From a virus (taxonomy: Duplodnaviria; Caudoviricetes), in the IMG/VR virus record IMGVR_UViG_3300037524_001078, positions 1 through 37,205 of that record: DNA of 37,205 nt. The stretch is one strand, 5' to 3'. Under the pieces are notes generated by a model that saw nothing but the letters and a program-made list of their open reading frames with translations, did no database searches and had not been told where the DNA came from. Shown piece by piece: positions 1 through 19,063 of the stretch. Each line of letters begins with the position of its first letter. The first letter of the stretch is position 1. The translations under genes were made by a program, and so were the position numbers.

Positions 1-95
1 GTACCGCACCAAGCCGTTCCCCGCCTCGCCTCTCCTGTCCAGGCCGTGACTGGACATGCCACGCCTAGACTCTCCGCGCCGGGCCTCACCACGCC
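1..95 (-). repeat. Pentamer (GGY-NN) tract 1, truncated by the window edge; candidate guide-RNA unit
   Basis: The + strand parses as 19 in-register 5-mers (gtacc gcacc aagcc gttcc ccgcc tcgcc ... tcacc acgcc). 12/19 end in RCC (GGY on -); the rest are single-base variants (tcc, gac). Confidence 0.85.
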
Positions 96-122
96 TCGGT
101 GTTTCGTGTCCCCTGTTCCATT

Positions 123-291
123 GGGCCGAAGCCCCCATGCCACGTCACGCCTCGCCGAGCCCTACCTCATCTCTCACTAACACGCCTCGCCGAGCCGTAC
201 CCCACCTCACACCAACACGCATTACCTAGCCTGGCACCGCCACGCCTCTCCGCAACACACCTTTCCGGGCACCTCCGCACCGCACCGCGAC
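123..291 (-). ncRNA. Pentamer (GGY-NN) tract 2 with 3' UUCG hairpin; candidate guide RNA
   Basis: 31 in-register 5-mers at 137-291 (17 end in RCC). On - they are followed by GGGC-UUCG-GCCC (123-134). Confidence 0.75.
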
Positions 292-326
292 ATTTTCAGA
301 AACCGACGCTATCTGTATCCGTGCAA

Positions 327-548
327 TCAACCACCAGGGACGTACCGATATTCCACTTCAAAAAATTCCATATAGTCGTCCGTTTCTCCAAAGTGTATGA
401 CATTCAATTCATATAAATACCCATCCATTCGCATCTCATATTGTGGCGCAAAACTGTTGTAGCATATAAAGACTCCATCAAATGGACCTCCAATGCACTC
501 AATAAGCATCTCCTTCTTCTCTGGCAATAGATCGCTTATATCTGCCAT
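327..548 (-). CDS. Small acidic hypothetical protein (73 aa) lying within the repeat array
   Basis: MADISDLLPEKK...YVPGG with a GGAGGT RBS upstream. AT-rich compared with its flanks. The longer 220-aa ORF call only reads through the repeats. Confidence 0.6.
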   Translation of the reverse strand: MADISDLLPEKKEMLIECIGGPFDGVFICYNSFAPQYEMRMDGYLYELNVIHFGETDDYMEFFEVEYRYVPGG

Positions 549-591
549 GTACACCTCCGCTAATATTGCCACTCTTTTGTCTCTTAAGACC

Positions 592-718
592 AATCGCCGA
601 CGTTTCCACCGACGATTTGTGAATAGCCATGCCTGACCACGACTCGTCGAGCCCAGCCATGCTGCGACGCGCCGAACCTTGCCGAGCCATGCCGTGACTC
701 GCCGAACCATGCCTTGCC
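592..718 (-). ncRNA. Pentamer (GGY-NN) tract 3 with 3' GAAA-tetraloop hairpin; candidate guide RNA
   Basis: 19 in-register 5-mers at 624-718 (14 end in RCC). The - strand hairpin AAUCGUCGGUG-GAAA-CGUCGGCGAUU (592-617) has 11 bp including 3 G-U pairs. Confidence 0.78.
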
Positions 719-739
719 CAAGCCTGTCTCTTTCAAAAT

Positions 740-870
740 CCTGCGACCCCCGTATTCCAGAAGCCGCAGGCGACCTTGCCGGGCCGTGCCGGGCCACGCC
801 GGGCCCTGCCCAGCCATGCCGTGCCTGGCACTGCCGAGCCGCGCCTCGCCGAGCCGCGCCATGCCGCTCC
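740..870 (-). ncRNA. Pentamer (GGY-NN) tract 4 with 3' hairpin; candidate guide RNA directly downstream of the RAMP-like gene
   Basis: 20 in-register 5-mers at 771-870 (18 end in RCC). The - strand hairpin CCUGCGGCUUCU-GGAAUAC-GGGGGUCGCAGG (740-770) has 12 bp including 4 G-U pairs. Confidence 0.8.
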
Positions 871-885
871 TCGTTCCCAGCCAAA

Positions 886-1455
886 TTACGCAACCTGCTC
901 AACGGTGAACCGTCCATGCTTCGGCCGCCAGTCGCATGCACCAACCTCGCGGCCTGCACGCTGGAACCACTCGACGACGCGAGATTCATTGGCCATCGTG
1001 TCTTCGTACTCGACCTCGACTACCGCCGACCAGTTGCGAAAGATCGGACGTGTACGCATCACGCGATTTTTGCCAACCTTCACGCCAACAACCAAGCGGA
1101 AGTTTTCGTCCTCCCACAATTCGTCGGCAGTACGTGGACCCTCGTATCCCAGGTCAGCCGCCTTTGTCACCATCAGGCCAGCTTTTGCGTTCTGCCCGTC
1201 TTTAACTTTCTTCGCACCGGCAATTGCTAACGCTTCGATGATCTCTGCTGTCAAGCACGGGCCGTTGCTGTTCATGTACAGCCCACCTTTGAACTCGATC
1301 TTGGCCATTCGCTCAAAATCGGCGTCGGTTTTCGTCCGTTTGGACGAGACTTCCTTCAGGGATTTCGAGAACTTGTTCAAAGGATTCGCGAGCTGTCCGT
1401 TGTGAAGGATGATCGTATCCCCCGACAACTTCAACTTCAGTGTCTTCCACGCCAT
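886..1455 (-). CDS. Solo RAMP/Cas7-like RNA-binding protein (Vipr-like), 189 aa
   Basis: N-terminal beta strand ending in G (LKLKLSGDTIILHN), RxRPxFxxW followed by a beta strand, and a C-terminal Gly-containing loop (AGREVGACDWRPKHGRFTV). This is the layout of RAMP/Cas7 RRM proteins. AAGGAG RBS. Fold inferred by eye. Confidence 0.7.
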   Translation of the reverse strand: MAWKTLKLKLSGDTIILHNGQLANPLNKFSKSLKEVSSKRTKTDADFERMAKIEFKGGLYMNSNGPCLTAEIIEALAIAGAKKVKDGQNAKAGLMVTKAADLGYEGPRTADELWEDENFRLVVGVKVGKNRVMRTRPIFRNWSAVVEVEYEDTMANESRVVEWFQRAGREVGACDWRPKHGRFTVEQVA

Positions 1456-1768
1456 AATCGAACTCCTTCATGCTGTTGCGTTGCGTGGGATTTTGGATTT
1501 CCGTGACATCAGGCGTCCCACGCTTGTCGTACCTGATGCCTCGGATCACGTTAGTGACTGCTTCGTGGCACTGAACGCACAGCGTCAATAAGTCTCTGTG
1601 CACGTCTTCATGCCAAAATGTCTTATAGTGCCGGTGGTGGCACTCAAGGCGGATTTCTTCAGACGAGCGATTGCAGGCGGCACAACGATGGTTGTCGATA
1701 GTGAGTCGCTGGTTGCGTAATTGCTGCCATGTCGGATGCAGCATCCGTGCTTCGTATTCCTGATTCAT
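1313..1768 (-). CDS. HNH endonuclease
   Basis: W..LR...L..DNHRCAAC...LECHHRHY...DLLTLCVQCH fits the CxxC...HH...CxxCH zinc-binding HNH pattern. Likely start is ATG 1768 with a GGAG RBS. The 3' end overlaps the RAMP-like gene by 143 nt. Confidence 0.85.
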   Translation of the reverse strand: MNQEYEARMLHPTWQQLRNQRLTIDNHRCAACNRSSEEIRLECHHRHYKTFWHEDVHRDLLTLCVQCHEAVTNVIRGIRYDKRGTPDVTEIQNPTQRNSMKEFDYGVEDTEVEVVGGYDHPSQRTARESFEQVLEIPEGSLVQTDENRRRF

Positions 1769-1786
1769 GCTTTCTCCAAAAAGCCC

Positions 1787-1871
1787 TTGCCACGCCACTC
1801 CCAACACGTCCCCGACAAACCTTTCCTCGCGGGACCGATCCTTGCATCGCCGTTTCCGGCCCCGCCTCACC
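1787..1871 (-). repeat. Degenerate pentamer (GGY-NN) tract 5, between the thermonuclease and HNH genes
   Basis: 17 in-register 5-mers: ttgcc acgcc actcc caaca cgtcc ccgac aaacc tttcc tcgcg ggacc gatcc ttgca tcgcc gtttc cggcc ccgcc tcacc. 12/17 end in CC. Confidence 0.65.
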
Positions 1872-2220
1872 CCTCATACCGCTTCGCCAACCCTGCCTTC
1901 ATCATCTGTTCGTTTAGACTTTCCTCCACTCCTGGGATGAATACGTGGATGATCCAGCGACCGTACCGCTCGCCGCCCTTCTGAGTCTTCACGATGACGT
2001 TGCCACCGGCCGCACCGATCTGATCTCGCAGCCATTCAGTTGCTTCCTTCCCGCCCGGCTGTGGATTGCGCCATGTTTCAGGTGCATCAATGCCAGCCAA
2101 TCGACAGCGTTCGCCGTGCAGCCACATGCCGCAGCCGAGGTCGATGTTCAAGATGATTGTGTCACCGTCTACGCAGCGTTCGACCGTGGCCTTGTACGTG
2201 TACAATTCTTTTTCGAGCAT
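1867..2220 (-). CDS. Thermonuclease (SNase-like) family protein
   Basis: Motifs VERCVDGDTI, RLAGIDAPE, YGRW and SLNEQMMKAGLA. Start ATG 2220 follows GGAGG (the ORF track extends to 2253). Confidence 0.9.
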   Translation of the reverse strand: MLEKELYTYKATVERCVDGDTIILNIDLGCGMWLHGERCRLAGIDAPETWRNPQPGGKEATEWLRDQIGAAGGNVIVKTQKGGERYGRWIIHVFIPGVEESLNEQMMKAGLAKRYEG

Positions 2221-2253
2221 CCCGTCATCCTCCGTATCTCTATTGCGTCCCAC

Positions 2254-2751
2254 CTACCGTCCGACCACCATCACGCCGACGTTGCCTTCGGCAATCCGCT
2301 GGAGCACCTGCTGCCCGAGGTCGGCCAGCGACAACTCGAACCGGATGACGCCGCCGGTCAGGCTCTTCGCCCGCCAGCCACAGCCGGCTAGAAACAGTTG
2401 CAACTCCAAGTCCTTTTCGTCCACTTGACACGTAGCCACCTCGCGGCGATCGCATATCTTGCGTTCGATCTGGTCCAGTAGCGTCTGACCGATGCCACGC
2501 CGACGAAAGCCGGGATGCACCACGATCCTGTGCACCACGATGCGGTCCGTCTCCAGCGTGTACAGCATCACGCCGACCACGTCGTTGAACTCGCCGACCT
2601 TGACGACGACAGACATGGTGTGCGGCATGCAGCAGTAGAGTTCGTACTCCTCGGCTCCCCAGCGGCGTGGCTCGCCGCCGAACGCCAGCAGTTCGAGGTC
2701 AAGCACGGCCTCCATGTCGCTGCGGCTCATCCACATTATCTTGAGTTGCAT
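2254..2751 (-). CDS. GNAT (RimI-like) N-acetyltransferase
   Basis: Acetyl-CoA-binding motif A (IVVHPGFRRRGIGQTLL) and a RimI-like N-terminus. Confidence 0.85.
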   Translation of the reverse strand: MQLKIMWMSRSDMEAVLDLELLAFGGEPRRWGAEEYELYCCMPHTMSVVVKVGEFNDVVGVMLYTLETDRIVVHRIVVHPGFRRRGIGQTLLDQIERKICDRREVATCQVDEKDLELQLFLAGCGWRAKSLTGGVIRFELSLADLGQQVLQRIAEGNVGVMVVGR

Positions 2752-2776
2752 GTCGTTCGCCTCCGGTGCTGTCAGG

Positions 2777-5152
2777 TCAGGTGGTCACGCCGAGCTTGGC
2801 CATGTTTCTTTGCACGTCCTCCGCCAGAAACGTCTTGCGGTTGTGCAGGCTCGAGCGGCTGGTGAACTCGCGGGCGGTCTGCTGCTTGCCGATCAGCAGG
2901 CAGCCGACCTGGGCCCGCGAAATGGCCGTGTACAACCACGACCGGTCGCAGACGCGAGACGCCGAACCGCTGGCGTCGAGCACGACGATGACGATTGGCC
3001 ACTGAGAGCCCTGGGATTTATGAACCGACACGGCGTACGCCAGATCCCACTGGCAGCCGGTGGCCGTCTTGTCGTCGTCGTTGCTGCCATTGCTATCGCC
3101 TTCGTCATCCGCCTTGCCGCGCGGGATGCGGACGACCCGGTACGGGTTCTGCAGTTCGGCGACCGTGTAGCGTGGTGCCACTTCGAGCACTTCGGCCTGC
3201 TCGCCGTTGGCGACGTAGACCTTGCCGTCCTTGTTGCACAGCTCGTCGTTCGGATCGCGGGACGGCGTCCAGGTGTTCTTCAGATTGATGATCTTGTCGC
3301 CAACGCGAAACGGATTTTGTCCGGACGCGTCCCGTAGTCCGTCGCGATTGAGCAGGTTCTGCAGCATGCTGTTGAGTGCCCGCCGGCTGACTTCGGATTT
3401 CGTGTTGACCGCACAGAGCACCTGGACATGCCAACGCGGATCGTACTTGCCACTGGCGACAATTTTACCGACAACGGCTTCGAGTTGTGCCAATTGTGTG
3501 GCAGGCGTCCCACCGTTGATGAGATATAAGTTATCTCCGGTTTCTGGCGACCACTGCGAACTTGTCTCAAATGTCGCCTTTTGTCGCATTGCTGCGCAAG
3601 CTGCGACTATTTGCCCGCTGTTTCGTCTAATTTCCGTTAGTTCACCGCACGGTACGCCAGCTTTGATCATGTCCCGCAGCGGCGAGCCGTGTCCGACCGG
3701 CGGCAGTTGGTTCGTGTCGCCGATAAAGAGGATGTGCGTGCCGGGCGCACAGGCGGACAGCAGCGAAGCCGCCACGAAACTGTCCAGCATGCTGGACTCG
3801 TCGACGACCAGATACTTGAACGGCAGCGGGTTGCCTTTGCCGAACGCGAACTGCCAGCCGTGCGAGTCGCCTTCGCCGCCAGGCTTCTCGACGCCCAGCA
3901 GCCGGTGGATGGTGGTAGCTTCGAGGTTGATGCCCATCTGGGCCATCGTCTCTGTGCACCGCACGGCGGCTTTGCCAGTCGGAGCCACCGCCGCCACCGA
4001 GTAGCCGCAGTCCCGCAGCAGAGCCCGCACGATGCGGCCGGCCGAGTACGTTTTGCCCGTGCCAGGTGTCCCGGTGAGGCAGGCGATGGGACTCGTCAAC
4101 GCGGCGACCACCTTGCCACGCTGGTGCACGGACAACTGGTCGTCCTCCAGCATGTCGGGCCACGTCGCCGGCTCGCTCAGCAGGTCTGCCACGCATTCGG
4201 CCAGCACGCGTTCGTGCTCCGCCCGGTCCTTGCTGGCGATCCACCGGCGGCCTTCGGCGTCCTGCCGCGTGGCGATCAGGCCCATTTCCACGGCCTGACG
4301 GCAGGCGTCGGCGGTGCGGATCTCGGTGCTGCTGATGTTGCCCCGCAGCGTCGAGAGCACCTCCGACTCCGACCGCCAAGTGTCGCCGGTCGAGGCGTTG
4401 GCGGCGTGCCAGATGCACCACGCCTGCCGCTCCAAGGCGTTCGGGTCGCAGCCAAGGTCGAGGTAGAGTCGGTCCGCCGTCAGGAACCCGACGCCGGAGA
4501 ACCGGATGAGTTTGTACGGATTCTCACGGATGATGCCCGGTGCGGCGTTACCCCAGGTGTCGATACACTTTTTGACCAGCACGCGGGGGAAGCCGCGGCC
4601 GGCGAAAAGTCCCGTCAGTTCGATGGTGACGGACTCGAGTGAGTCCCGTTCTTCCAGCCACTTGGCGGCCACCTTCGCCCGTGCCTCGGACAGGGTTCGC
4701 ACCTTCGCGGCGGCCAGGGCCGGATTGGTGCGGACGACTTCCACCGCCTGCTCACCGAACTCGGCGAACAATGCAGCGGCACCCGCTTCGCCGATGCCGG
4801 GTGCCTGCTTGAGGTACGCCACGATCCCGCGTCGGCCCAGCGGTGCAGACAGGACGAACGACTGAAAGGCGAACTGCCAGCCGTACCGCTCGTGCTCCAC
4901 CCAGCGTCCGTAGAGTCGGTAGGTCAGTCCCTGCCGAAAGTCACCTTCCGCCGCCGGGCCTTTGATCTTCCACGTCGTGCGGTCTTTGGCGACGGTGGCT
5001 AGTCCGATGATGACGCGGCTGTCACCCGTGCCGAATGCGTTCAGCTCCCGCATGAAGTTGACGACCACTTCCCGTCGTTCCCGCAGGTCGGCAGCCGGTA
5101 CATCCGGACGGATGGATTCGAAGTCGCTTAAACGCTTCACGTCAGCCCTCAC
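2777..5152 (-). CDS. recD2: RecD2-like SF1B ATP-dependent helicase
   Basis: N-terminal H.RYG.QF and HhH (PGIG, ENPY, GVGF), Walker A GTPGTGKT, APTGKAA, TIHRLL, VVDESSM, GDTNQLPPVG, LAYAVSVHKSQGSQW and LYTAISRA. Confidence 0.93.
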   Translation of the reverse strand: MRADVKRLSDFESIRPDVPAADLRERREVVVNFMRELNAFGTGDSRVIIGLATVAKDRTTWKIKGPAAEGDFRQGLTYRLYGRWVEHERYGWQFAFQSFVLSAPLGRRGIVAYLKQAPGIGEAGAAALFAEFGEQAVEVVRTNPALAAAKVRTLSEARAKVAAKWLEERDSLESVTIELTGLFAGRGFPRVLVKKCIDTWGNAAPGIIRENPYKLIRFSGVGFLTADRLYLDLGCDPNALERQAWCIWHAANASTGDTWRSESEVLSTLRGNISSTEIRTADACRQAVEMGLIATRQDAEGRRWIASKDRAEHERVLAECVADLLSEPATWPDMLEDDQLSVHQRGKVVAALTSPIACLTGTPGTGKTYSAGRIVRALLRDCGYSVAAVAPTGKAAVRCTETMAQMGINLEATTIHRLLGVEKPGGEGDSHGWQFAFGKGNPLPFKYLVVDESSMLDSFVAASLLSACAPGTHILFIGDTNQLPPVGHGSPLRDMIKAGVPCGELTEIRRNSGQIVAACAAMRQKATFETSSQWSPETGDNLYLINGGTPATQLAQLEAVVGKIVASGKYDPRWHVQVLCAVNTKSEVSRRALNSMLQNLLNRDGLRDASGQNPFRVGDKIINLKNTWTPSRDPNDELCNKDGKVYVANGEQAEVLEVAPRYTVAELQNPYRVVRIPRGKADDEGDSNGSNDDDKTATGCQWDLAYAVSVHKSQGSQWPIVIVVLDASGSASRVCDRSWLYTAISRAQVGCLLIGKQQTAREFTSRSSLHNRKTFLAEDVQRNMAKLGVTT

Positions 5153-5161
5153 GTTTCTAGG

Positions 5162-5458
5162 AAAAAACCGCTGCCGCCGTGGTTTGGGAATCGGTGGGCA
5201 GCGAGCACCGACTAAGGACGACTGATCGCCTGATCCCGAGCAACCAAGCCGCTACCTCGGTCTGTCAGCAACCGGCACACTCACGGCGTATGCCATCCAT
5301 GCGACGACGTGCCTTCCACACCCCAGCAAGACACGCAGAATCGCTTACGGTCTGGACCAACCGCCCTCAGCTATGTTGGAAAACCGGTGCGGACGCGGAG
5401 AGGTAGCACGCATCCGCACCGGAGTGAGGACAACGGGACGGGCTGCGGCCCCGTTGTC
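5162..5458 (-). ncRNA. Candidate highly structured ncRNA or cis-regulatory leader upstream of recD2
   Basis: 16-bp long-range helix (5355-5370 with 5212-5227, 5 G-U pairs on -), several internal hairpins, a 14-bp hairpin at 5384-5422, a possible 3' pseudoknot and a U6 tract. No convincing ORF. Confidence 0.6.
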
Positions 5459-5939
5459 AGAAATTCACGCCCTGCAGCGGATCGCCCTCGGCCGTCTGGC
5501 CGACCATCCCGTTGTTCTTCGGGATGTCTTTCGCTTCCGGAGCATCCAGGGCCCAGATGCCGGCGAAGCTCCAATTGACGAACTGGCCGTCCTTGCTCTT
5601 GACCAGCTCCACGCAAATCTGGCGTCCCTCGGCCTGCGTGAGATCAAGAGCGAGCCGCTTGCCGGTTCGCTTGGCGTCGATCATCTGTTCGGTCGTCGTC
5701 AACTTGGTGGCCAGCACGAACAGGGCCAGTCGCTTTTCGGACTTTGCCGACCGTGACAGATACTCGCGGTTCGTCTTGCCTTCCATCCCTTTCACGGTGC
5801 CGCTGAGGATCTCGTAGTCGACCGCGATCGACTTCGACGGATCACTCTCGTCGACACCTTGGATCAGGATGTGGTACTTGCCGGGCTGTGGCCGATCGTT
5901 CGGGTTTTCCGGATCAAAGCCTTCGAAACCGAATTCCAT
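5457..5939 (-). CDS. Putative phage single-stranded DNA-binding protein (DUF669-like)
   Basis: The PGKYHILIQGVDE N-terminal motif, ~160-aa size, C-terminal F and position beside a Sak4-like ATPase. Confidence 0.55.
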   Translation of the reverse strand: MEFGFEGFDPENPNDRPQPGKYHILIQGVDESDPSKSIAVDYEILSGTVKGMEGKTNREYLSRSAKSEKRLALFVLATKLTTTEQMIDAKRTGKRLALDLTQAEGRQICVELVKSKDGQFVNWSFAGIWALDAPEAKDIPKNNGMVGQTAEGDPLQGVNF

Positions 5940-5947
5940 ACGTCACC

Positions 5948-6127
5948 TCACTCGTTTTTAAGGATGGATTGAATGGCCGCTTCAACGGCCTGCATTTCGC
6001 CGAGCGTGTGGGCCCAGTAGGCTGGGTACTGCAACGCTCGCAAGCCCTCGGTCAACACTAACTCTTCTCCATGCCGGTCCACCAATGGTCGCATGACGTT
6101 TGACCATTGATGGCCCGGCCAAGTCAC
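5948..6127 (-). CDS. Small hypothetical protein (48-59 aa)
   Basis: Open frame read by hand (MRPLVDRHGEELVLTEGL...SILKNE) filling the gap. The GTG at 6127 overlaps the upstream stop; an alternative ATG is at 6094. Confidence 0.4.
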   Translation of the reverse strand: MTWPGHQWSNVMRPLVDRHGEELVLTEGLRALQYPAYWAHTLGEMQAVEAAIQSILKNE

Positions 6128-7422
6128 TTTCCCGCTTTCTCTGCTGCCTCCGTCAGCGTGCGGATGATCTCTGCCGCCCTATCGCGTGTCAGGTCCAGCG
6201 GATTGGTCGATCCGCCGGTGTGCTTCGCAATGCCCTGCTCGAACCGCTCGAGCGACAACCCCAGGCGTTGCTTGAGTTCCACGAGCTGTGCCGCCTGCTC
6301 CGGCGTGCACTTGCCGTCCGGCGTGATGCCGTGGCTTTCGGCTTCCGGTTCGTCCAGATCGAACGGCGGCTCTTCCGGCTTCTCGACAGCCGCCTTGACG
6401 GTTTCAGCCGCCTTCTGCTGGGACGACACGTCGATCGGCTGCGGTGCCGCGGCGGCCTTCGTTTCGGACATCTGCCGCAGTTCGGCCTGCCGCGTCAGCC
6501 TCTCGAGTGCCGATGCTTCGGCGTCTGCTTTGGCCTGGGCGATCTGCCGCTCGATCTCGAGCTTGTCGATTTCGCTGACCGCCTCTTCGACGACCCGTTC
6601 GTTGGTCTTCAGTTTACCGTAGTCGGCCGGCTTCTGGACGTATTCGCGGATCTTGCTCGGCGAACAGTCGTCGAACGCCGGCGGGAGATACGGCAGAATG
6701 ACCGGCTCCATCGTTTGCTGGTCGAACGACGTGTACGACAACCGATCCTTGAGCTTTTTGTGGCATCGCGGCTTGGCGGACACCTTGCCTGTCTTCGGGT
6801 CCGGCGACCGGTCGAGCCAGAGGTAGAGGCTCGCCAGTTCGAGCAGCGTCGTCTTGCCGCCCGGCTTATCCTTCGACGTGGGCTTGCCGTTGACCCAGTC
6901 CTTTTTCAGGTGTGCCGTGAATATGAACGTCTCACAGCGGCTGGCGAGGTCGGCCAGCAGCCGCTTCCAGTGCTCGCGGACCTTCGACCAGAAGATGCCG
7001 CCGGTGATCACGAACGACTTCTCGCTCGAGAACCCGTGCTTGGCGTATTCGCTGGCCACGAAGTCAACCAGTCCGCTTTCGATGTCGGTGATCGGGTCCG
7101 CCACAATCACGGCGTAACTGCCCGGCTGAATCGCCAGTACGTCCTGCTGCCACCAGCGAAAGACGTCGATCGGGCGGTACTCCTTCTGGCCGAACAGTCC
7201 ACGCATAGTGGCCGGCACGTCGACGTAGTCGAAGTCCAGCCCGCGATAGCCGCTGGCCGACAGTTCGAAGTCGTACACCCGCGTCCGCTTCTGGCCCGGT
7301 GCGATCGACAGAGCGAACAGCGTCTTGCCGGACTGGTATTTGCCGGTGACGCCAATGACCGGGATTCTCACGGCTTCTCCGTAAGAATTCGTCCCCCAAA
7401 CTCCTGACACATTCTCGACCAT
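6124..7422 (-). CDS. P-loop AAA ATPase, Sak4/AAA_24-like recombination protein
   Basis: Walker A GKYQSGKT, VYDFE, IVADPIT and FIFTAH. Start ATG 7422 with a GGAGG RBS. Adjacent to SSB-like and exonuclease genes. Confidence 0.75.
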   Translation of the reverse strand: MVENVSGVWGTNSYGEAVRIPVIGVTGKYQSGKTLFALSIAPGQKRTRVYDFELSASGYRGLDFDYVDVPATMRGLFGQKEYRPIDVFRWWQQDVLAIQPGSYAVIVADPITDIESGLVDFVASEYAKHGFSSEKSFVITGGIFWSKVREHWKRLLADLASRCETFIFTAHLKKDWVNGKPTSKDKPGGKTTLLELASLYLWLDRSPDPKTGKVSAKPRCHKKLKDRLSYTSFDQQTMEPVILPYLPPAFDDCSPSKIREYVQKPADYGKLKTNERVVEEAVSEIDKLEIERQIAQAKADAEASALERLTRQAELRQMSETKAAAAPQPIDVSSQQKAAETVKAAVEKPEEPPFDLDEPEAESHGITPDGKCTPEQAAQLVELKQRLGLSLERFEQGIAKHTGGSTNPLDLTRDRAAEIIRTLTEAAEKAGK

Positions 7423-7492
7423 TGTGCAGCCCTCCCACGCGAAAACCCGATTCTCTTTCACTGCCGCTATCGGCTTGGTTTGACAATTGGAG

Positions 7493-7520
7493 ATTGTACC
7501 GACATCGGCACTATCGGCAA
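7493..7520 (-). promoter_or_regulatory. Sigma70-type promoter for the recombination/replication operon
   Basis: TTGCCG-16 nt-TACAAT on -. The spacer contains TGCCGAT, and an A/T-tract region lies upstream. Confidence 0.55.
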
Positions 7521-7600
7521 TGGAAAGCGGCGGAAATTTTCCAGATTTTCTGGTCCGGAAAACGTCCGCCGCCCATACTCCACCTCCGTGCGACCGGTTG

Positions 7601-8395
7601 TCAGAATCCCAGCCGTTTGGCGACTGCCATCGTCATGTCGATGTCGCCCGTCAGATAGGCGACCGCTGTATCGCGTTCCTCGTCCCACAGGCGGGCGAAA
7701 TCAGCCCCTTCGCCGCCAACCTTGCCACCGACACCGAGGAACTTCGCCACGCGTTCCAGGCCCGCGTAGGCCCCGTATTCGCCCGAGCACCACTCAACCA
7801 TCAGATCGACGACCGACTCGTGCCAGTTGCGGCCCCGCTTGAGCAGCTCCGTTGGCACCGGCAGACCGTGCAGGTAGGATCGCTTGCGGCAGAATGGCAG
7901 GTCGAACTTGTGGCAATTCCAGCCCACAAGCTGGCCGTTGTTTCGCACGACGCTGTAGAAGATGGACCACAGTTCCGTCAGCAGGTCGGCCTCGTCGGCC
8001 GCATGGATGATCCGGCGGCCGTCGGCGTCACCGTATCCGATCACGAGCACGCTGCCACGCAGCGGATCGAGGGCCGCCTTCTCAATGTACTCCCGTTCGT
8101 ACTCCGCCTTCTTTTTCTGCCAGTTGACGGCGTGCATTTCGCGGGCGGTGGCAAGTTTCTCGGCGATCTTTCTGGCGTCTTTCAAGTTCCCGATTTTCAC
8201 GGCCGCTTCGTCGAACGGCTCGAGCGGCGGAAACGGCTGCATGTCGGCCAGCAGTAAACTTTCGTCGAGAGGTGCCGTTTCGATGTCGAACGCCACCAGA
8301 CCGTTTGGGTTCAAAGCCTCCACGACCGAATCGGCCATCACGTCGGCGTAGCTGGCAATCCGGTCGACGTCCAGGTTCCGCAAGTCCAGTTCCAT
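7601..8395 (-). CDS. 3'-5' exonuclease, PolB-like (DEDD/RNase H fold)
   Basis: ExoI AFDIET, ExoII LVGWNCHKFDLPF and ExoIII YLTGDI. Likely start is ATG 8395. Confidence 0.85.
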   Translation of the reverse strand: MELDLRNLDVDRIASYADVMADSVVEALNPNGLVAFDIETAPLDESLLLADMQPFPPLEPFDEAAVKIGNLKDARKIAEKLATAREMHAVNWQKKKAEYEREYIEKAALDPLRGSVLVIGYGDADGRRIIHAADEADLLTELWSIFYSVVRNNGQLVGWNCHKFDLPFCRKRSYLHGLPVPTELLKRGRNWHESVVDLMVEWCSGEYGAYAGLERVAKFLGVGGKVGGEGADFARLWDEERDTAVAYLTGDIDMTMAVAKRLGF

Positions 8396-8490
8396 GGCAA
8401 CCCCCGCATGGTAATAAATGGTAATAACGTCCGCCCTGGCGGTGCTCGCCACACGCGAGCGAGAGCAAACAAAGGCGGAAATGGTGTTCT

Positions 8491-8691
8491 TTAATTCCCG
8501 CCAGGACGGACTGTTTTCGCACGGCGATCCTCGTGGAGCAGCCGGTAGATTTCCTTGCGATGGACCGAGACGGTTTTTGGTGCTTCAATCCCGAGCCGGA
8601 CACGATCTGGCCGGATCTGGCACACCACGATTTCAATCGTTCCGTCGCCGATCACAATGCGTTCGTCTGTCTTGCGGGTGAGCACTAACAC
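8491..8691 (-). CDS. csrA: Carbon storage regulator CsrA/RsmA homologue
   Basis: (M)LVLTRKTDERIVIGD..IEIVV...DRVRLGIEAPKTVSVHRKEIY. GTG start follows AGGAGG. Confidence 0.95.
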   Translation of the reverse strand: MLVLTRKTDERIVIGDGTIEIVVCQIRPDRVRLGIEAPKTVSVHRKEIYRLLHEDRRAKTVRPGGN

Positions 8692-8847
8692 GATGCACCT
8701 CCTGTTGGTCCACTGGTCCAAACCACGGTCCTCCACGGCCGCGGGCACCGTGGAGAACTGGTGCCATCCTTGTTATTCACCGCAAGTTGACGCGGGCATC
8801 CGTTTTAGATTCCTGTTTCTGTGCCGCCACACGAGCGGCAGGGAGCA

Positions 8848-8877
8848 ATTATAGTCCTGACTACGGGACAAAAGCAA
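8848..8877 (-). promoter_or_regulatory. Putative promoter for csrA
   Basis: TTGCTT-18 nt-TATAAT on -. Confidence 0.45.
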
Positions 8878-8938
8878 GACAAAAAAAGGTCGCAGACAAA
8901 AGCCAGCGACCTTCGTGCTGTTGAGAGGCGTAGGAATT

Positions 8939-9172
8939 CTACGTGGACCGGCGCTGTCGTCGCGTCGGCCGGCTGAAATTCGGGTTGCCGACGATCCGTG
9001 GCTGGCGGGAGAATTTCTCCAGCCCCGACTCCTCGATCAGCCACTGGCGACCGACCGGGATGGCTGGAATCCGTCCCTGCCGGCAATACCGCGTGACCAA
9101 ACTGGCGTCAATCCGTAACACGTCGGCCGCCTCTCCTACGGTGTAAAAAGTGCCCGTAATCATGCGTGCCAT
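8939..9172 (-). CDS. Excisionase-like/MerR-type HTH DNA-binding protein
   Basis: FYTVGEAADVLRIDASLVTRYCRQGRIPAIPVGRQWLI matches the HTH_17/Xis pattern. Located near the integrase. Start is ATG 9172. Confidence 0.85.
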   Translation of the reverse strand: MARMITGTFYTVGEAADVLRIDASLVTRYCRQGRIPAIPVGRQWLIEESGLEKFSRQPRIVGNPNFSRPTRRQRRST

Positions 9173-9178
9173 GCCCTT

Positions 9179-9206
9179 ATTGTACCAATACTGAGACAAT
9201 AGTAAA
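9179..9206 (-). promoter_or_regulatory. Extended -10 promoter, probably giving a leaderless mRNA for the HTH gene
   Basis: TTTACT-16 nt (ending TGG)-TACAAT-AAGGGC-ATG. Confidence 0.6.
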
Positions 9207-9213
9207 GTAAAAT

Positions 9214-9299
9214 GCCGTCGCCGAGCAGTCCTAAGGTTGTGAGGGTTTGTGTCTCAGATACCTCCGGGGCCTCGCGGCTGCCCGCTACTCGACGACGGC
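9214..9299 (-). ncRNA. Candidate structured RNA 3' of the tRNA (c4-antisense-like architecture)
   Basis: 15-bp closing helix GCCGUCGUCGAGUAG / CUGCUCGGCGACGGC (G-U pairs on -) enclosing a GCC-GCGA-GGC hairpin and a second arm. Confidence 0.45.
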
Positions 9300-9304
9300 G
9301 GCAG

Positions 9305-9379
9305 TACGCCGTGCAGGGCTCGAACCTGCGACCTTGGGTTCCGTAGACCCACGCTCTAATCCAACTGAGCTAACGGCGC
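9305..9379 (-). tRNA. tRNA-Arg (ACG)
   Basis: GCGCCGT/ACGGCGT acceptor stem, D arm GCTC..GAGC, anticodon arm TGGGT-CTACGGA-ACCCA and T arm GCAGG-TTCGAGC-CCTGC. No encoded CCA. Confidence 0.93.
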
Positions 9380-9580
9380 ACTCGTCAGGCGTATAATCGT
9401 CCTGTCGCCGATACTGTTACCTATACCATGCCCCAGCCAATTGAGATGAAGCACGCAAGTGCCCTATCTCACTCTCCAATGGAGAAAAAACCGCCGTCGA
9501 TCCAATAGGCATATCGCCAGTCGCTTTTATACTTTCGCGTGGAACAAGTGGCATGGAGGCGTCTACCCCGAGGTGACGCC

Positions 9581-10417
9581 ATGAAACTCCGAGAATTCAT
9601 TGAGTTCTATCTTGCCTCGCGGGACGTATCGGACGGCTATGCCAATCAGCTCCGCTGGCTTGCCAACTCCATCCAGCGGACAATCGGCGAACAGCCCGGT
9701 GTGGAGCAATTCACGCCGGAGCTACTCAACCAGCACCTGAAAGCCACTCGCGACCGGCTGCGGCCCGAGACGCGGAAAAGCCACCGCCGGATGCTGCTCA
9801 CGCTCTGGCAGGCGGCGGCCGATGCCGGGTTGGCCCCAGAGCCAGTCCGCCGCAAGGTGATGCCGATCCGCGTCCCCGATAAACTCCAGCATGCCTGGAC
9901 GGCTGAACAGGTGCGGCTGCTGCTGGTCGGTGCCGATCGCCTGCGGGGATACTATCCGATCGGCGTCCGCAAGACGCTCTACTGGCGGTCGTATGTGCTG
10001 ACTGCCTGGGACTCCGGCCTGCGTGGCTGCGACATGCGGCGGATCAGCCGGGACGCGATCGGTGACGACGGCCGCTGTGTGCTCGTCCAGCACAAAACCG
10101 GAAGGCTGCACCGGTTTCGATTGCGACAAGAGACGGTCGCCGAGGTACGGGCGATGTTCCCGCCGGACAGGGAATTGGTCTGGCCGCTCTGGGGACGGCT
10201 GGAATTGTGGCGGCGACAGGCGAGGTTACTGGTCCAACTGGCTGGCCTGCGTGGCTCGATCGGCCAACTCCGGCACAGCAGCGGTACGGCGGTCGAGGTG
10301 AAGTATCCGGGCCGCGGGCACGAGCATTTGGGCAACACGCGGGCAGTGTTCGAACGGCACTACCTCGACCACGAGAAGATCGGTTTCGAGGCGGTGCTGC
10401 CGGAAAGTTTGCTTTGA
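9581..10417 (+). CDS. Tyrosine recombinase/integrase
   Basis: SGLRGCD (catalytic R), HKTG (K), QLRHS (HxxR box), HLGNT and RHY (catalytic Y). ATG 9581 follows GAGGTG. Confidence 0.85.
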   Translation: MKLREFIEFYLASRDVSDGYANQLRWLANSIQRTIGEQPGVEQFTPELLNQHLKATRDRLRPETRKSHRRMLLTLWQAAADAGLAPEPVRRKVMPIRVPDKLQHAWTAEQVRLLLVGADRLRGYYPIGVRKTLYWRSYVLTAWDSGLRGCDMRRISRDAIGDDGRCVLVQHKTGRLHRFRLRQETVAEVRAMFPPDRELVWPLWGRLELWRRQARLLVQLAGLRGSIGQLRHSSGTAVEVKYPGRGHEHLGNTRAVFERHYLDHEKIGFEAVLPESLL

Positions 10418-10456
10418 CTGGGTGGTGCTGGTATCTTTGCTGGAACGAGGTGCACC

Positions 10457-10654
10457 ATGCGAAAGGTTGCAGAAGTCACGTTGGCACTGTTCATCATCGC
10501 CGCCATCGCCTCCACTGCGTATCGCCTTGGATATGAAAAAGGCACGGCCGAAGAGGCAGCGCATCAGCAATTCATTCACGCAGGGGAGGAGACGATGAAA
10601 CACACCAAAAACGTACGAGAGATATTGCAGAGATTAGACCAGCCAGAGAACTAG
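10457..10654 (+). CDS. Small membrane-anchored hypothetical protein
   Basis: N-terminal hydrophobic helix and a GAGG RBS. Confidence 0.55.
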   Translation: MRKVAEVTLALFIIAAIASTAYRLGYEKGTAEEAAHQQFIHAGEETMKHTKNVREILQRLDQPEN

Positions 10655-11574
10655 CCCGCCACGTACTCCAGCCACTGCGGTGCTAGAATCCGCCAATCGG
10701 CTTTCTCCTCGATCTCACGCCGCACGCCGCGGCTTAACGGACCGAGTGCCCAGTGCCAGTCGGTCATCAGCTCCAGCAGCACGCTTTCCGCCTCGTCCAC
10801 GACCGCCGGAGCCTGCTGTGCATGCTCCCAGCCGCGGAGGATGACAAACGACTTGAACCGCTTCGAGTCGCCCGCCGGCGTGGCAATAACCGGGACGCCG
10901 GTAGCCGCCGCCTCGAGCTGCGGCATCTGGCAACCTTCGTTAGCAGACGTGCACAGCAGCACGTCCAGGCTCCGATACCATGCCGCCATCTCCATTTGGC
11001 TCAAGGCGGTCGCCGCGCTCCTGGTATTTAGTCGCCAATCGACCTGCGGCAACCGCTGCATCAGCGGCAACAAAACCTCTTGGTAGCCTTTAGGGGACGC
11101 TCCGCCGACCTGTCCACACCAGCCAACCCGGAGGTGCTTGCCGGTGGCTCGCGTGCGGGGCTGGAACGCCTCCAGATCGACGCCGGCCGGAATGTAGGTC
11201 GAGGGAGCCAGCCGCCCGCAGAACGCCTCCAGTCGCCGCGTAACGCAGATCACGCCATCGACGCCTGGTAGGTGCTGCTCCACTTCCCAGCGGTTGCGTT
11301 TGCGGGTTGTTCCCAAAGCACCTAGCGGCAACGTCATGGCGTCCGCCGCCGCCAGGACGACCCGCCGGATCGGCACTTGAATCGCATCACACCAGGACAT
11401 GAACAGCACGGCGTCGAAGTGGCAGGCACTCTCGAGCGTGAACTCCCGATGGCAGAAGAGCTGCACGGTGTACTCCGGCGGGGCATACTTCGCCAGCCCG
11501 CGAGCCATGTGGTGCCACGCCCAGCCTGGCGTGTCGTACACAATGGCAATCCGCTTTACCGACGTCGCACCCAC
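10651..11574 (-). CDS. Glycosyltransferase, GT-B (GT4-like)
   Basis: GVDLEAF, VGWCG, and the EX7E motif in TSANEGCQMPQLEAAATGVPVIAT. GTG start at 11574 follows GGAGG. Confidence 0.88.
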   Translation of the reverse strand: MGATSVKRIAIVYDTPGWAWHHMARGLAKYAPPEYTVQLFCHREFTLESACHFDAVLFMSWCDAIQVPIRRVVLAAADAMTLPLGALGTTRKRNRWEVEQHLPGVDGVICVTRRLEAFCGRLAPSTYIPAGVDLEAFQPRTRATGKHLRVGWCGQVGGASPKGYQEVLLPLMQRLPQVDWRLNTRSAATALSQMEMAAWYRSLDVLLCTSANEGCQMPQLEAAATGVPVIATPAGDSKRFKSFVILRGWEHAQQAPAVVDEAESVLLELMTDWHWALGPLSRGVRREIEEKADWRILAPQWLEYVAG

Positions 11575-12149
11575 ATCGCCTCCACGGTGCCGTAGCGGTC
11601 CGGCCGTCCGGACTTCGTCGGCAGAAACTCGTAGTGTACCTCGAGCCATGTAGGTGCCGGAAACAGGCTCTTGAGGTGTTCATGGCTGCGAATTGGATGG
11701 CAGTGCCCGTCGCTACCGCCAGTTGGCTCAATCGGCACGCCGACGAAGCACCATTCGTCGCAGGCTTGCGTGATCTGCCGGACTGCCTCTTGCTGGTCGT
11801 AGCAGTGCTCGAGGATGTGCGAGGCGTGAATGTTCCAACGGCCCGGCACGACGCTGGCGAGGTGCTCGCAGTCGCCTTGATAGACTTCGAACCCGAGTGC
11901 CCGCCCGTCTTGGCAGAACGATTCGACTACCTCCAGCCCAACGACCGGTGCGAACCCGAGATCCTGGTACTCCTGCAGTTCAAACCCATGCTGCGGTCCG
12001 ATCACCAGCACGCCGGACTTGCTCAGTCCCAGCCTGCGGACGATTTCCGTGGCGTTCTGCACGCGGCCGGCGGCACTGGCCTGCACCTCGTCACCACGCC
12101 CCACGCACCACTTGTACTGCAGTTCCTGGTAGCCGAGCGGCTGTTGCAT
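11556..12149 (-). CDS. Class I SAM-dependent methyltransferase-like protein
   Basis: VLVIGPQHG (motif I-like), VVGLE, GDCE and ASHILEH. Confidence 0.7.
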   Translation of the reverse strand: MQQPLGYQELQYKWCVGRGDEVQASAAGRVQNATEIVRRLGLSKSGVLVIGPQHGFELQEYQDLGFAPVVGLEVVESFCQDGRALGFEVYQGDCEHLASVVPGRWNIHASHILEHCYDQQEAVRQITQACDEWCFVGVPIEPTGGSDGHCHPIRSHEHLKSLFPAPTWLEVHYEFLPTKSGRPDRYGTVEAMWVRRR

Positions 12150-13120
12150 CAGATTCCCTTCAAAAAGCCAGCGATGAAACCTTCGATGATCCCCAGCAGC
12201 CGTTCACAGTATCCCGCCACGCCGTGCTGCTCCATGGCTACTTTCTGGCCTTCGAGTGCCGGCCAGTGTAGGTCGTGGTCGATAGCCGAGCGGATGACAC
12301 GCACGATTTCATCGTCGCTGGCGTCGTACTCAACGCGAACCATGTGCGGGCCCAGCGACCGTTCGAAGTCCGGCGGCACGTCCCCGATCACGCGGGCCCC
12401 GGCTTGGGCCGCTTCAACATACTTGGCAAGTCCGTAGTTGTAGATGGACGAGCAGCAGAAAACGTGCCTGGCGTTGCCCAATTCGCGAGCGTACGCCATT
12501 TGCTGGCGATCGCATTCCTGCAGGCTGCCCAACCGGTAGCCTGGATGCGGCAGCACCTTGCCCGGCAGCCGACCTGCTGCGATCAAGTCCGCAACCCGCG
12601 TCCGCAGCGGGTATACATCCGGGTTGAGTGTGCCCGTGACCAGCAGCGGCGTGGTCCGCTGAAACCACCACCTGCCGGCCGACACGAAGATTTCCGGGTC
12701 GGCACAATGCGGAATGTGGACGGCTGGCAGACCGCAGAAACGCTCGGCGTCCGCCTGATGGTGGTAGATCACCAAGTCGGTTGCGGAATTGGTGCACTCG
12801 TTCACGGCCCGATCATCTGGCCAATACGCCTCGTTGTAGATGGCCACTGCTGGGATATTCCTGGCGTACGGATCGCGGATCGCCGGAACCTTGTCCCGCA
12901 CGCTCCCCAGCGGCTTGTACCACAGAATCGCGTCAGCCAGCGGGTAGGTTGAGTTGATATTGTCTTGGATGCTGGCGGCATCGTCCCAGTCGTCCCAACC
13001 CTGCCCGCTCAAGTGGCAATGGTACCGGTCCGGTCGGATTAGGTGTCGGATCACGTCCCGCCGCCCGCTGGACATTTTCCGCTCCCAGTACACTTGCGGA
13101 TACAGGATGAGCAGTTTCAT
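12149..13120 (-). CDS. Glycosyltransferase, GT-B-like
   Basis: IPHCADPEIF, YPLR and KYVEAAQAGARVIG, within the glycosyltransferase cluster. Confidence 0.7.
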   Translation of the reverse strand: MKLLILYPQVYWERKMSSGRRDVIRHLIRPDRYHCHLSGQGWDDWDDAASIQDNINSTYPLADAILWYKPLGSVRDKVPAIRDPYARNIPAVAIYNEAYWPDDRAVNECTNSATDLVIYHHQADAERFCGLPAVHIPHCADPEIFVSAGRWWFQRTTPLLVTGTLNPDVYPLRTRVADLIAAGRLPGKVLPHPGYRLGSLQECDRQQMAYARELGNARHVFCCSSIYNYGLAKYVEAAQAGARVIGDVPPDFERSLGPHMVRVEYDASDDEIVRVIRSAIDHDLHWPALEGQKVAMEQHGVAGYCERLLGIIEGFIAGFLKGI

Positions 13121-13392
13121 TCCTCAGGCTCCCGATTGACGGTGCACAGCCCCAATGCCTCTGCGAGGTACGGAGCTGCGTCTCGTGCTGCAGCCGCCGC
13201 AGCTCGCATGCGGTCTGCGTACAGTTTGCTGTCGCTCTGCAATTCAGCCGCCACGTGAGCCGCGAGGTGGGCGTAAATCCGGCTGGCTGTCTCGGCAATG
13301 AATTGCTGAATGGACGCCTGGGCTGCATGAGCCCGTGCCATTTCCTGAGCCGCCAGCCGCAACCGGCCGTTTTCTCCTGGGAGTTCAATCAT
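13117..13392 (-). CDS. Hypothetical helical protein
   Basis: Translationally coupled ORF (MIELPGENGR...). Confidence 0.5.
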   Translation of the reverse strand: MIELPGENGRLRLAAQEMARAHAAQASIQQFIAETASRIYAHLAAHVAAELQSDSKLYADRMRAAAAAARDAAPYLAEALGLCTVNREPEE

Positions 13393-14317
13393 TCGTCGTC
13401 GCCTCCTGCACGATAGCCGCCGCCTCCGCAGTCGGCACAAGTTTCTGCACGTTCACCGTCTCCAGATCCATCGCAAGTTCGGCAGCGTTTGGGTCGCCGC
13501 TTAACAGGTCGTCCGAGCAGCAGCAGGAGCCAAGCCACATCTCGCACGCCTCCACTGGGCCAGAAACCGAAGCTGACTTCGCTGTGAATTCGCTCGAATC
13601 GTTGACCGTCTGTTTCTGCCACTTGAGAATCCTCGCGTCATCCAGAACTAACCGCAGGCCGGACACCTCCTCGGCCGCATCCAGCGTCAATCGTTTGCCG
13701 ACGTCGGTATTGGCGGACCCGTTGGCGAAGATCAGCAGTGAACCGCCTGGCCGCAGCAAGTTGTGCATGAACTCAAAAAACAGCCGCAGCTTGGCTCGCG
13801 TGATGGGAGTGTCCCGCCACGCCAGCCGTTTGCAGTCGTGGTGCAAGTGGTGCGGTTCGCCTTCCATGCAGTCGGCGAACATCTGCTCGAACGAGCCGCG
13901 CGAATTGATCAGCACGAACTGTTCGGCCCGATCGGTGATCTGCTCACCGCCTTCGCCAAACAGCAACGCATCCAAGCCGCAGAGAGTCACACACAATTTC
14001 TGTCGTGAGTGCATCAGGCTGCAGGCCCGCACATAGGCGTTGCCCATCCCGCCTTTGCCGTCCGGAGCATCCAGCCCGATGGCGTTGTGGTTGTAATAGC
14101 GAGCGATTTCCAGCAGTTCTCCGGCACCTGGGCCAAGGTCCAGCACGCAGCCGGATGACGCTTTGTACAACTCTGGGGCGTACGCATCTACGTACTCCCA
14201 GTGCTCCTGCAGCCGACGGCTGCGATTCAACTTTTTGCGGAGCCATTCGTCCGACATCAGCGTGTCCCACGCCGATTGCCATGCAGCGTTCGCTTCCAAG
14301 AGAGGCAGGTCAATCAT
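13385..14317 (-). CDS. Class I SAM-dependent methyltransferase
   Basis: VLDLGPGAG (motif I), IGLD and LLRPGGSLLI. Confidence 0.8.
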   Translation of the reverse strand: MIDLPLLEANAAWQSAWDTLMSDEWLRKKLNRSRRLQEHWEYVDAYAPELYKASSGCVLDLGPGAGELLEIARYYNHNAIGLDAPDGKGGMGNAYVRACSLMHSRQKLCVTLCGLDALLFGEGGEQITDRAEQFVLINSRGSFEQMFADCMEGEPHHLHHDCKRLAWRDTPITRAKLRLFFEFMHNLLRPGGSLLIFANGSANTDVGKRLTLDAAEEVSGLRLVLDDARILKWQKQTVNDSSEFTAKSASVSGPVEACEMWLGSCCCSDDLLSGDPNAAELAMDLETVNVQKLVPTAEAAAIVQEATTND

Positions 14318-14943
14318 CCTTGCTCCTTCGCGTTGTGGGTGCCAAACAGGTCGCGGATGGCGAACGTGATGGCAGACTCCAGATCCTCGATTGTGCTGTC
14401 ATTGCGGACGACGGCGTCCCAGTCGCTCGGTTGGAGCGAGTGCTCGCTGGCGTGGTTTCCCTCTGCATCGCAACGGAAGTTCGCCGATCGTTGGCTGACG
14501 ATGCGGATCACCTTGCCGGCGTAGTTCTTCCGAATGAGCGCCGACTCGTTGGGAAATCGCACGTCGGTGAAAACGACGTTGTTCCACGGCGGAACGTCGG
14601 CCAGACGCCGATTGGCAATGTTCAGCCAGCAGCCCTGTCCGTGGATGTCCCGCCCGCCTTCGGTGCCGTAGCGTTGCAGCAGACCGCGCACCTCAGTCTT
14701 TTCTTTGAGTGCGTCCCAGCCCCAGCGGTCGACCGCCTGTTGGAGCGAATAGTGGATGCGAGCCCCAGTCAGCCTCTGCAGAGGATGAAGCAATGCGGCG
14801 ACATTCACCGTTGGGTTAACGCCCAGTAGTCCCCAGCGAACAGGGTCGGCGAATGCCATCTTCTTCCAGCCGCGGCGAATGAGCGAATCAGCCGCCGTGT
14901 CTTTGCCGCACCTGGCCGCACCGCAGAGCCCAATCACTCGCAT
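14314..14943 (-). CDS. Deoxynucleoside monophosphate kinase
   Basis: IGLCGAARCGKDTAA P-loop, FADP, LLQRYGTE and VVFTDVRFPNE, the T4 gp1-like pattern. Confidence 0.9.
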   Translation of the reverse strand: MRVIGLCGAARCGKDTAADSLIRRGWKKMAFADPVRWGLLGVNPTVNVAALLHPLQRLTGARIHYSLQQAVDRWGWDALKEKTEVRGLLQRYGTEGGRDIHGQGCWLNIANRRLADVPPWNNVVFTDVRFPNESALIRKNYAGKVIRIVSQRSANFRCDAEGNHASEHSLQPSDWDAVVRNDSTIEDLESAITFAIRDLFGTHNAKEQG

Positions 14944-15158
14944 GCGGTTGTCCCTTTTGTCTCATTTATGTCCCTTTTGCACGTCACGATTGGAAACCGC
15001 TCGTATGGCGCATCCGCCGACGTTGGGCGCTCGATCGGGAGCGGCGGCATGGAGTTCGAACCGCACGTCACCTTTGGCGGCTCGCTGCAGATAAAACACT
15101 GCACGATCGTCGGAGCGTACACCCGTCCGCACTTGGGACAGATCCAGCCCATGTTCAT
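14934..15158 (-). CDS. Small zinc-ribbon protein
   Basis: GWICPKCGRVYAP...CFIC. Confidence 0.6.
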   Translation of the reverse strand: MNMGWICPKCGRVYAPTIVQCFICSEPPKVTCGSNSMPPLPIERPTSADAPYERFPIVTCKRDINETKGTTACE

Positions 15159-15168
15159 GGCTCTCTCC

Positions 15169-17754: not shown

Positions 17755-17781
17755 CCGTGCTGATTCCCACGCTCCTCCGCC

Positions 17782-18632: not shown

Positions 18633-18633
18633 C

Positions 18634-18960: not shown

Positions 18961-18966
18961 GCCCTT

Positions 18967-18994
18967 ATTATACAGTTATCGGCATAGTTGTCAA
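18967..18994 (-). promoter_or_regulatory. Consensus sigma70 promoter
   Basis: TTGACA-actatgccgataactg (16 nt)-TATAAT-AAGGGC-ATG on -, with A/T tracts upstream. Confidence 0.8.
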
Positions 18995-19063
18995 GTGTCT
19001 GGCAGAAAAAAATCCAAAATTTTTTGCGGGCCAGCTTGGCCGCATCACGTGGCAACCAACGCG

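Follow-up and report, generated by a model that had tools for sequence, protein, structure and literature searches.

Hairpins behind the GGY-NN tracts of a phage VIPR locus and tRNA-like spacers in related arrays

Gene content and tract layout of the locus

The window, meaning the whole stretch of 37,205 bases analysed here, is a phage-like contig that carries tape measure, head and tail genes, RecD2 and glycosyltransferases. None of the 41 ORFs scanned belongs to a cas family, and no CRISPR array lies at the locus. A scan for GGY at 5-base spacing revealed five tracts, all on the minus strand, which is also the strand of a RAMP-like gene, vipr. On that strand an upstream tract is followed by an HNH-like gene, vipr and then tracts 4, 3, 2 and 1:

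1782-1871, minus strand: upstream (fifth) tract, 18 units, 8 exact GGY; no hairpin
1313-1768, minus strand: HNH-like accessory (vap-like) gene, 151 aa, directly upstream of vipr
886-1455, minus strand: vipr, 189-aa RAMP-like protein P0001
771-870, minus strand: tract 4, 20 units, 18 exact GGY
740-770, minus strand: hairpin 4, predicted 3′ tail of the tract-4 RNA
725-739, minus strand: A/U-rich linker holding GAAA and RGRGACA (725-731)
624-728, minus strand: tract 3, 21 units including two degenerate lead-in units, 14 exact GGY
592-617, minus strand: hairpin 3, predicted 3′ tail of the tract-3 RNA
327-548, minus strand: ORF of 73 codons with a ribosome-binding site; the insert holding it has 41% GC and separates tract 3 from tract 2
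137-291, minus strand: tract 2, 31 units, 17 exact GGY
123-134, minus strand: hairpin 2, weak, directly at the end of tract 2
1-110, minus strand: tract 1, 22 units (three of them lead-in units) with 12 exact GGY; truncated where the contig ends

The initial annotation had placed a RAMP-like gene on the minus strand, and phmmer assigns its product to the Vipr family: residues 4-187 of P0001 match PDB chain 36pp_D ('SUSP1 Vipr protein') with an E-value of 7.9e-25. The AlphaFold model of P0001 has a pLDDT of 94.3, and its top Foldseek matches are CRISPR Csm/Cmr chains, in line with the RAMP fold with thumb and G-loop that characterizes Vipr proteins. Alignment equates H18, K34, R136, D175, W176 and R177 of P0001 with H17, K33, R138, D177, W178 and R179 of the SUSP1 protein, residues described as RNA/DNA contacts in a structural preprint (10.64898/2026.04.26.720927). 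A relative, P0002, shares 74% identity. Together, 886-1455 (minus strand) and the GGY-NN tracts constitute the guide array locus of a phage VIPR system.

The frame of the HNH-like gene reaches 143 nt into vipr. Its best matches are PHROG HNH families (E = 4e-12), the Pfam HNH match falling under the cut-off (E = 0.38). A homolog lies directly upstream of vipr in 132 of the 160 related loci analysed (the best 80 of 422 viral and of 109 genomic ones); in this group a possible nuclease thus accompanies phage arrays with several guides. The upstream tract, overlooked in the initial annotation like the 73-codon ORF, starts where an SNase-like nuclease gene (1867-2253) has its stop codon and runs to the ribosome-binding site that serves the HNH-like gene. 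The ORF at 327-548 found no relative by Pfam, PHROG or tblastn, its atlas matches all being sub-threshold. Unrelated small ORFs, each of 81 aa, occupy inter-tract gaps of two related loci, L002 and L020.

According to the parts of the VIPR preprints that we could consult, small-RNA-seq identified four vrRNAs of ~100 nt, each composed of 9-16 repeats and an invariable structured 3′ tail, which recognize their targets by a one-base-skip rule; seven VIPR types are distinguished, and staggered as well as hammerhead-interspersed arrays are presented in figs S18-S19 (10.64898/2026.04.26.720920, supplement PMC13142463). Cryo-EM resolved one Vipr subunit per repeat and, at the 3′ end, a capping pseudoknot (10.64898/2026.04.26.720927); further VIPR preprints, likewise seen in part, are 10.64898/2026.10.15.759431 and 10.64898/2026.10.21.760802. 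As far as these texts describe the type II systems of SUSP1 and P. fulva, the window resembles them in its conserved RNA-contact residues, its two-gene phage locus, its GGY/NN tracts (one upstream and several downstream) and its 3′ structure. It differs in having an HNH-like accessory gene, a small ORF inside the array and an upstream tract without a tail. The window tracts, at 18-31 units with degenerate edge units counted, also exceed the 9-16 repeats per published vrRNA, a range that the consulted text gives as typical and not as a strict criterion (10.64898/2026.04.26.720920). Tracts of such length, with a predicted target of ~60-90 bp, thus exist.

Internal duplications that keep the register and span whole numbers of pentamers occur in tract 2 (35 nt, 146-220) and tract 3 (30 nt, 651-713), which suggests that guides change through in-register slippage or recombination. 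Weak GGY signals, with 5 of 10 units each, were also seen at about 2487-2541 and 27110-27164.

By analogy with the published system, each pentamer would bind one Vipr subunit and its NN pair would read double-stranded DNA with a one-base skip, a gapped recognition that might be directed at other mobile elements. In a search for DNA targets under this rule, even the highest-scoring gapped matches from the window and the 160 loci stayed at chance, and a skip of 1 did no better than a skip of 0 or 2. Exact-seed scans of viral contigs, which are insensitive and left tract 2 outside their scope, returned 7, 0, 24 and 10 matches, again at chance level. Agreement outside the seed was that expected by chance for tract 3 (6-7/24 for 5/7 scorable matches) and for tracts 1 and 5 (at most 8/22 and 7/20, respectively). 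These searches yielded no target that would mark the tracts as guides.

Hairpins at the ends of the window tracts

The stem behind tract 4 had been annotated as 12 bp with 4 G-U pairs. The four G-U pairs are present, but RNAfold predicts 13 bp closed by a 5-nt GAAUA loop, and 12 bp are obtained only with the inner G-C pair open. This hairpin begins 0 nt past the last tract-4 pentamer and folds far better on the minus than on the plus strand (z = −5.35 versus −1.69; −21.7 versus −7.6 kcal/mol). Hairpin 3, which begins 6 nt past tract 3, is exactly as first described, with 11 bp, 3 G-U pairs and a GAAA tetraloop, and shows the same strand preference (z = −2.99 on the minus versus −0.44 on the plus strand). 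Both have a high pairing probability within a 900-nt precursor. Since the minus strand of the 37-kb contig contains only 10 perfect hairpins of at least 11 bp, two of which are hairpins 4 and 3, their positions are not attributable to chance.

The situation differs for hairpin 2, a 4-bp stem with a cUUCGg loop. It is present where the initial annotation had drawn GGGC-UUCG-GCCC and is the sole cUUCGg hairpin of at least 4 bp on the minus strand of the contig, but it is weak: by energy it lies within chance (z = −1.57; 14 of 200 shuffles fold equally well), and at −5.4 on both strands it lacks the minus-strand specificity that had been claimed for all three stems and that holds for hairpins 4 and 3. 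Its pair probability of 0.68-0.69 in the 900-nt precursor drops to 0.39 when the tracts are forced to remain unpaired. It is therefore conceivable that only hairpins 4 and 3 matter, that the UUCG stem is incidental and that tracts 2 and 1 mature by another route or are in decay, as the 17 exact GGY among 31 units of tract 2 and its internal duplication would also fit. Given the uniqueness of the stem on its strand in 37 kb, its place at the tract end and an RGRGACA motif behind it, we consider this reading somewhat unlikely; it is in any case compatible with the interpretation given below for tracts 4 and 3.

A structured tail is thus strong behind tracts 4 and 3 and weak behind tract 2, while tract 1 is truncated. 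Behind the upstream tract at 1782-1871 no tail structure was found (folding z = +0.8).

The three hairpins were described as differing in sequence, which is true overall, except that one apex, UG-GAA(U)A-CG, is common to hairpins 4 and 3 and that RGRGACA follows all three at a distance of 7-9 nt (725-731, 578-584 and 107-113). This motif was defined post hoc and occurs 10 times in the contig, 3 of these occurrences lying behind the window hairpins. An alignment of the three window linkers and tails was uninformative, and the tails do not align as copies. With stems of unlike sequence, a single nuclease is unlikely to cut them all sequence-specifically. The GAAA reported on the 5′ side of tracts 1-3 is there, at unequal distances.

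Hairpin 4 is followed by AUUUU, raising the question of whether the hairpins serve as intrinsic terminators of low strength or as pause sites, partial termination producing the 3′ ends and read-through or internal promoters supplying the later tracts. Hairpins in homologous arrays (best 160 of 531 loci) are indeed commoner at the last downstream tract (43 of 83) than at internal tracts (46 of 123). Against this, hairpins 3 and 2 lack a U-tract, as do all but 10 of the 89 downstream hairpins of the same homologs, a terminator scan called none of the three window hairpins, and no sigma-70 promoter was found in 1-2300. A role in termination is therefore quite improbable.

We propose instead, with a probability of about 0.6, that the hairpins are the structured 3′ tails of separate VIPR guide RNAs of ~130, 130 and 165 nt. 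If the published system is a guide, the HNH-like gene, vipr and the array would be co-transcribed. A host endonuclease could then cut the A/U-rich linker behind each stem and 3′ exonucleases could trim back to the stem, which would protect the RNA end and bound the Vipr filament. The notion that the RNAs are separate and bear a structured cap at their 3′ ends, already put forward in the initial annotation, agrees with published VIPR, where a structured 3′ tail on each RNA is a known feature; that annotation was mostly right in what it observed and plausible in its interpretation. The window hairpins by themselves are an ordinary instance of this feature.

In the prediction by RNAfold, the three window tails fold as simple, non-identical, G-U-rich hairpins and not as the invariant pseudoknot tail of ~40 nt that the consulted text describes for type II. 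A plain hairpin may thus replace the pseudoknot as a VIPR tail. Distinctive of this locus are these tails, the long tracts, the HNH-like partner and the ORF embedded in the array.

The crRNA of Class 1 CRISPR combines a variable guide, held in a RAMP filament, with a 3′ stem-loop handle that caps it. The window would parallel this arrangement with its variable guides and predicted 3′ stem caps; it differs in having no repeats, spacers or Cas6 and in the different sequences of its stems.

The preferred reading implies that the transcript is cut. Were the hairpins only to stop the filament or to insulate tracts on one long unprocessed transcript, neither a processing enzyme nor a ribozyme would be needed, and the locus encodes neither: the hammerhead core CUGANGA...GAAA was found at 0 loci among the window tracts and the 160 related loci (best 160 of 531), and Rfam returned no match of note and no ribozyme in 1-2300. 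The protein-coding ORF inside the array would also suit a long transcript. We nonetheless regard this alternative as improbable, as the published arrays yield discrete RNAs of ~100 nt (10.64898/2026.04.26.720920, consulted in part). The VIPR preprint text available to us gives no account of how arrays are cut into single guides, except for the hammerhead and staggered arrays, in which a module in the linker between tracts, the place of the hairpins in the window, yields single guides. From the hammerhead arrays as they appear in that text, the window and the 160 loci differ in carrying hairpins or tRNA-like spacers and no hammerhead core.

In three wetland metatranscriptome runs (X4-X6, a small share), each of which gave one short contig here (815-974, 895-1045 and 847-997, at a depth of 2-3), no RNA contig covered a window hairpin; scattered pieces lie elsewhere in 1-20000. 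Since the runs were found with this stretch itself, DNA carry-over is possible and no hairpin was covered, we draw no conclusion from these contigs. Positions 34-638 and 640-20000 are covered by the DNA run X2; it lists three single-base differences, none of them in a hairpin. A search for close relatives suited to a covariation analysis of the window hairpins found none in viral contigs and one unrelated weak match in a metagenome.

Structures behind the tracts of homologous arrays

We identified 531 related loci (422 viral and 109 genomic) and analysed the best 80 of each. These 160 loci and the window were dereplicated at <80% identity to 106 loci, 99 of which have scorable tracts, giving 257 tracts including the window's four. 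Among these 99 loci, drawn from the best 160 of 531, a structure stands behind 129 of the 257 tracts (96 hairpins and 33 tRNA-like elements), about five times background. Perfect hairpins of at least 8 bp were found at 96/257 tract ends compared to 140/1407 random windows, and the tRNA-like pattern at 33/257 compared to 19/1407. Counted by locus, 53 of the 106 carry hairpins, 18 carry tRNA-like elements, 28 carry neither and 7 lack a scorable tract. Homologous arrays are thus not devoid of 3′ structures, a finding that the initial annotation had named as one that would refute separate capped RNAs; yet tails occur behind only about half of the tracts, structure being absent from 128/257 tracts and 28/99 loci, where tract-end calls are rough and some arrays abut.

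Folding energies in the same set (best 160 of 531 loci) point the same way: the z-score falls below −2 in 95/257 tail windows compared to 33/318 random and 26/225 in-tract windows. The homologs share no general strand bias, since 89/257 reverse complements of the tail windows also reach a z-score below −2 (asymmetry in 55/99 loci, P = 0.056). Among the 77 hairpins of at least 10 bp in these loci, the start lies −3 to +10 nt from the tract end in 59 and the loop is of the GNRA/UNCG type in 28, while RGRGACA was found behind none of the 75 other long hairpins. Compensatory changes between hairpin copies of one array occur in L044, L069, L113 and L140.

Long tracts are common as well: in the loci analysed (best 160 of 531), a permissive caller assigned more than 16 units to 110/257 tracts. 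Tracts of 42-60 in-register units in L042, L083, L095, L022 and L062 are either fused guides or staggered arrays. Other arrays (L046, L049, L055, L059-L067, L072 and L077-L079) consist of many short, near-abutting and register-shifted tracts, mostly of 9-14 units, and resemble the published staggered VIPR arrays as presented in the sources consulted.

tRNA-like spacers in related arrays

The more interesting result of the survey is the class of spacers found in relatives of the window. These are tRNA-like elements of about 41-51 nt that lack an anticodon arm, show compensatory changes and lie mostly between tracts (33 elements in 99 loci; for example L002:3726-4849 and L012:3660-3701). Class one (L001-L010, L016 and L017) forms a three-way junction of 45-46 nt in the linker, with a 7-bp acceptor-like stem, an arm of 3-4 bp closed by a loop that bears GG, and an arm of 5 bp whose loop reads TTCGAN or ATCRACG. 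Class two (L011, L012, L025, L033, L083, L091, L093, L145, L153 and L158), mostly of 41-45 nt, combines an acceptor-like stem with a short strand that bears GG and with a canonical T-arm.

In class one, 96.5% of the cells pair across 26 hand-picked elements and 8/10 pairs change on both sides, the T-stem being unscored owing to an alignment shift. The corresponding values for the 18 elements of class two are 86.8% and 12/13. Because elements were selected by the T-stem and part of the T-loop, and the acceptor was set at the best-pairing position, these pairing counts lean towards structure. The covariation scores of both classes lie above all 500 shuffles and all slid controls. The GG, which was not a selection criterion, is present in 18/18 elements of class two and at least 90% conserved in class one, although GG is also common in the tracts; in tRNA, GG pairs with the T-loop.

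A covariance model of class two, run on 100 loci, returned 25 matches. All of them lie on the strand of vipr, and they include matches in the untrained loci L035, L149 and L152. ARAGORN called 2 tRNAs in 24 spacer-bearing loci, one of which overlaps the L093 element, and a comparison of the spacers of 10 loci with Rfam gave no relevant match. Three of the 18 tRNA-like loci (L084, L092 and L105) look like ordinary UUCG-type hairpins and are not matched by the model. Spacers as remnants of phage attachment sites were considered and rejected because the 5′ acceptor strand covaries and because several diverged copies occur in each array.

In 26 chosen loci, 73 of 76 elements have tract-like sequence upstream and 68 downstream, against a background of 124/1401. 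The last tract is without an element in L002, L005-L008, L016, L017 and L025, and with one in L010, L011, L145, L151 and L158. The spacers thus appear to behave mostly as separators, which would fit release by RNase P and a 3′ nuclease of the kind described for mascRNA (PMC4919922). That they occupy the same slot as the window hairpins, mostly between tracts, points to cutting and so speaks against one long unprocessed transcript.

These relatives invite a further reading of the window itself, in which its hairpins are degenerate tRNA mimics cut by RNase P, the stem being removed from the upstream guide and leaving no cap. Of the loci with called arrays, those whose Vipr proteins are most similar (L001-L013, 55-60% identity) do carry tRNA-like spacers, and the geometry of hairpin 4 also admits a minihelix of 12 bp with a loop of 7 nt. 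The window loops, on the other side, lack the T-loop consensus, and its combination with an acceptor-like stem and GG is absent from the window linkers. The class-two model detects the T-arm of the genuine tRNA-Arg of the contig, a tRNA-Arg(ACG) gene at 9304-9379 (minus strand), but found nothing in 1-900 at E up to 10. This descent from tRNA mimics is accordingly very improbable. A quick, unfinished tree places the window in a weakly resolved group with L002 and L016 and requires 12 changes of the tRNA-like label, which is not confined to one clade.

Retaining the hairpins as 3′ tails, we suggest at about even odds that guide maturation is an exchangeable module: many arrays of the HNH-linked group (~15/99 dereplicated loci, among them the nearest relatives of the window) would use mini-tRNAs without an anticodon, through which host RNase P and a 3′ tRNA nuclease would be brought in to divide the array into single guides, and the window hairpins would be an alternative filling of a slot held elsewhere by a pseudoknot or hammerheads, both published, or by the tRNA-like spacers of this survey. 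In the consulted texts of three VIPR preprints and one supplement the word tRNA occurs 0 times, and a literature search likewise returned 0 papers on such spacers. Known precedents are mascRNA and menRNA, tRNA-like RNase P/Z substrates that define RNA ends within a longer transcript (PMC4919922, seen in part). As far as that source describes them, the spacers of the relatives resemble these RNAs in their acceptor-like stem, T-arm and conserved GG, and differ in lacking an anticodon arm, in their length of about 41-51 nt, in matching no Rfam family (10 loci) and in that their cleavage is a prediction; the window has no such spacers.

Short tRNA mimics may let a phage borrow the tRNA-processing enzymes of its host for guide maturation. 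Engineered polycistronic tRNA-gRNA arrays use tRNA folds to define RNA ends for the multiplexing of CRISPR guides; if our reading is correct, the spacers would be a natural counterpart of that design, and a natural spacer of 42-46 nt would offer a compact element for expressing several guides together. The locus in the window and its relatives make the cutting of VIPR arrays directly testable.

Several features elsewhere in the contig complete the description. A cluster of glycosyltransferase-like, methyltransferase-like, radical SAM, nucleotide kinase and nucleotidase genes at 10651-21213 (minus strand) suggests DNA or surface modification. Tandem repeats of 66 nt at 34959-35341 lie in the region of an ORF at 34773-35405, which probably encodes a repeat protein. 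The longest perfect hairpin of the contig, of 17 bp at 31697-31737 (minus strand), ends in a U-run and is terminator-like.
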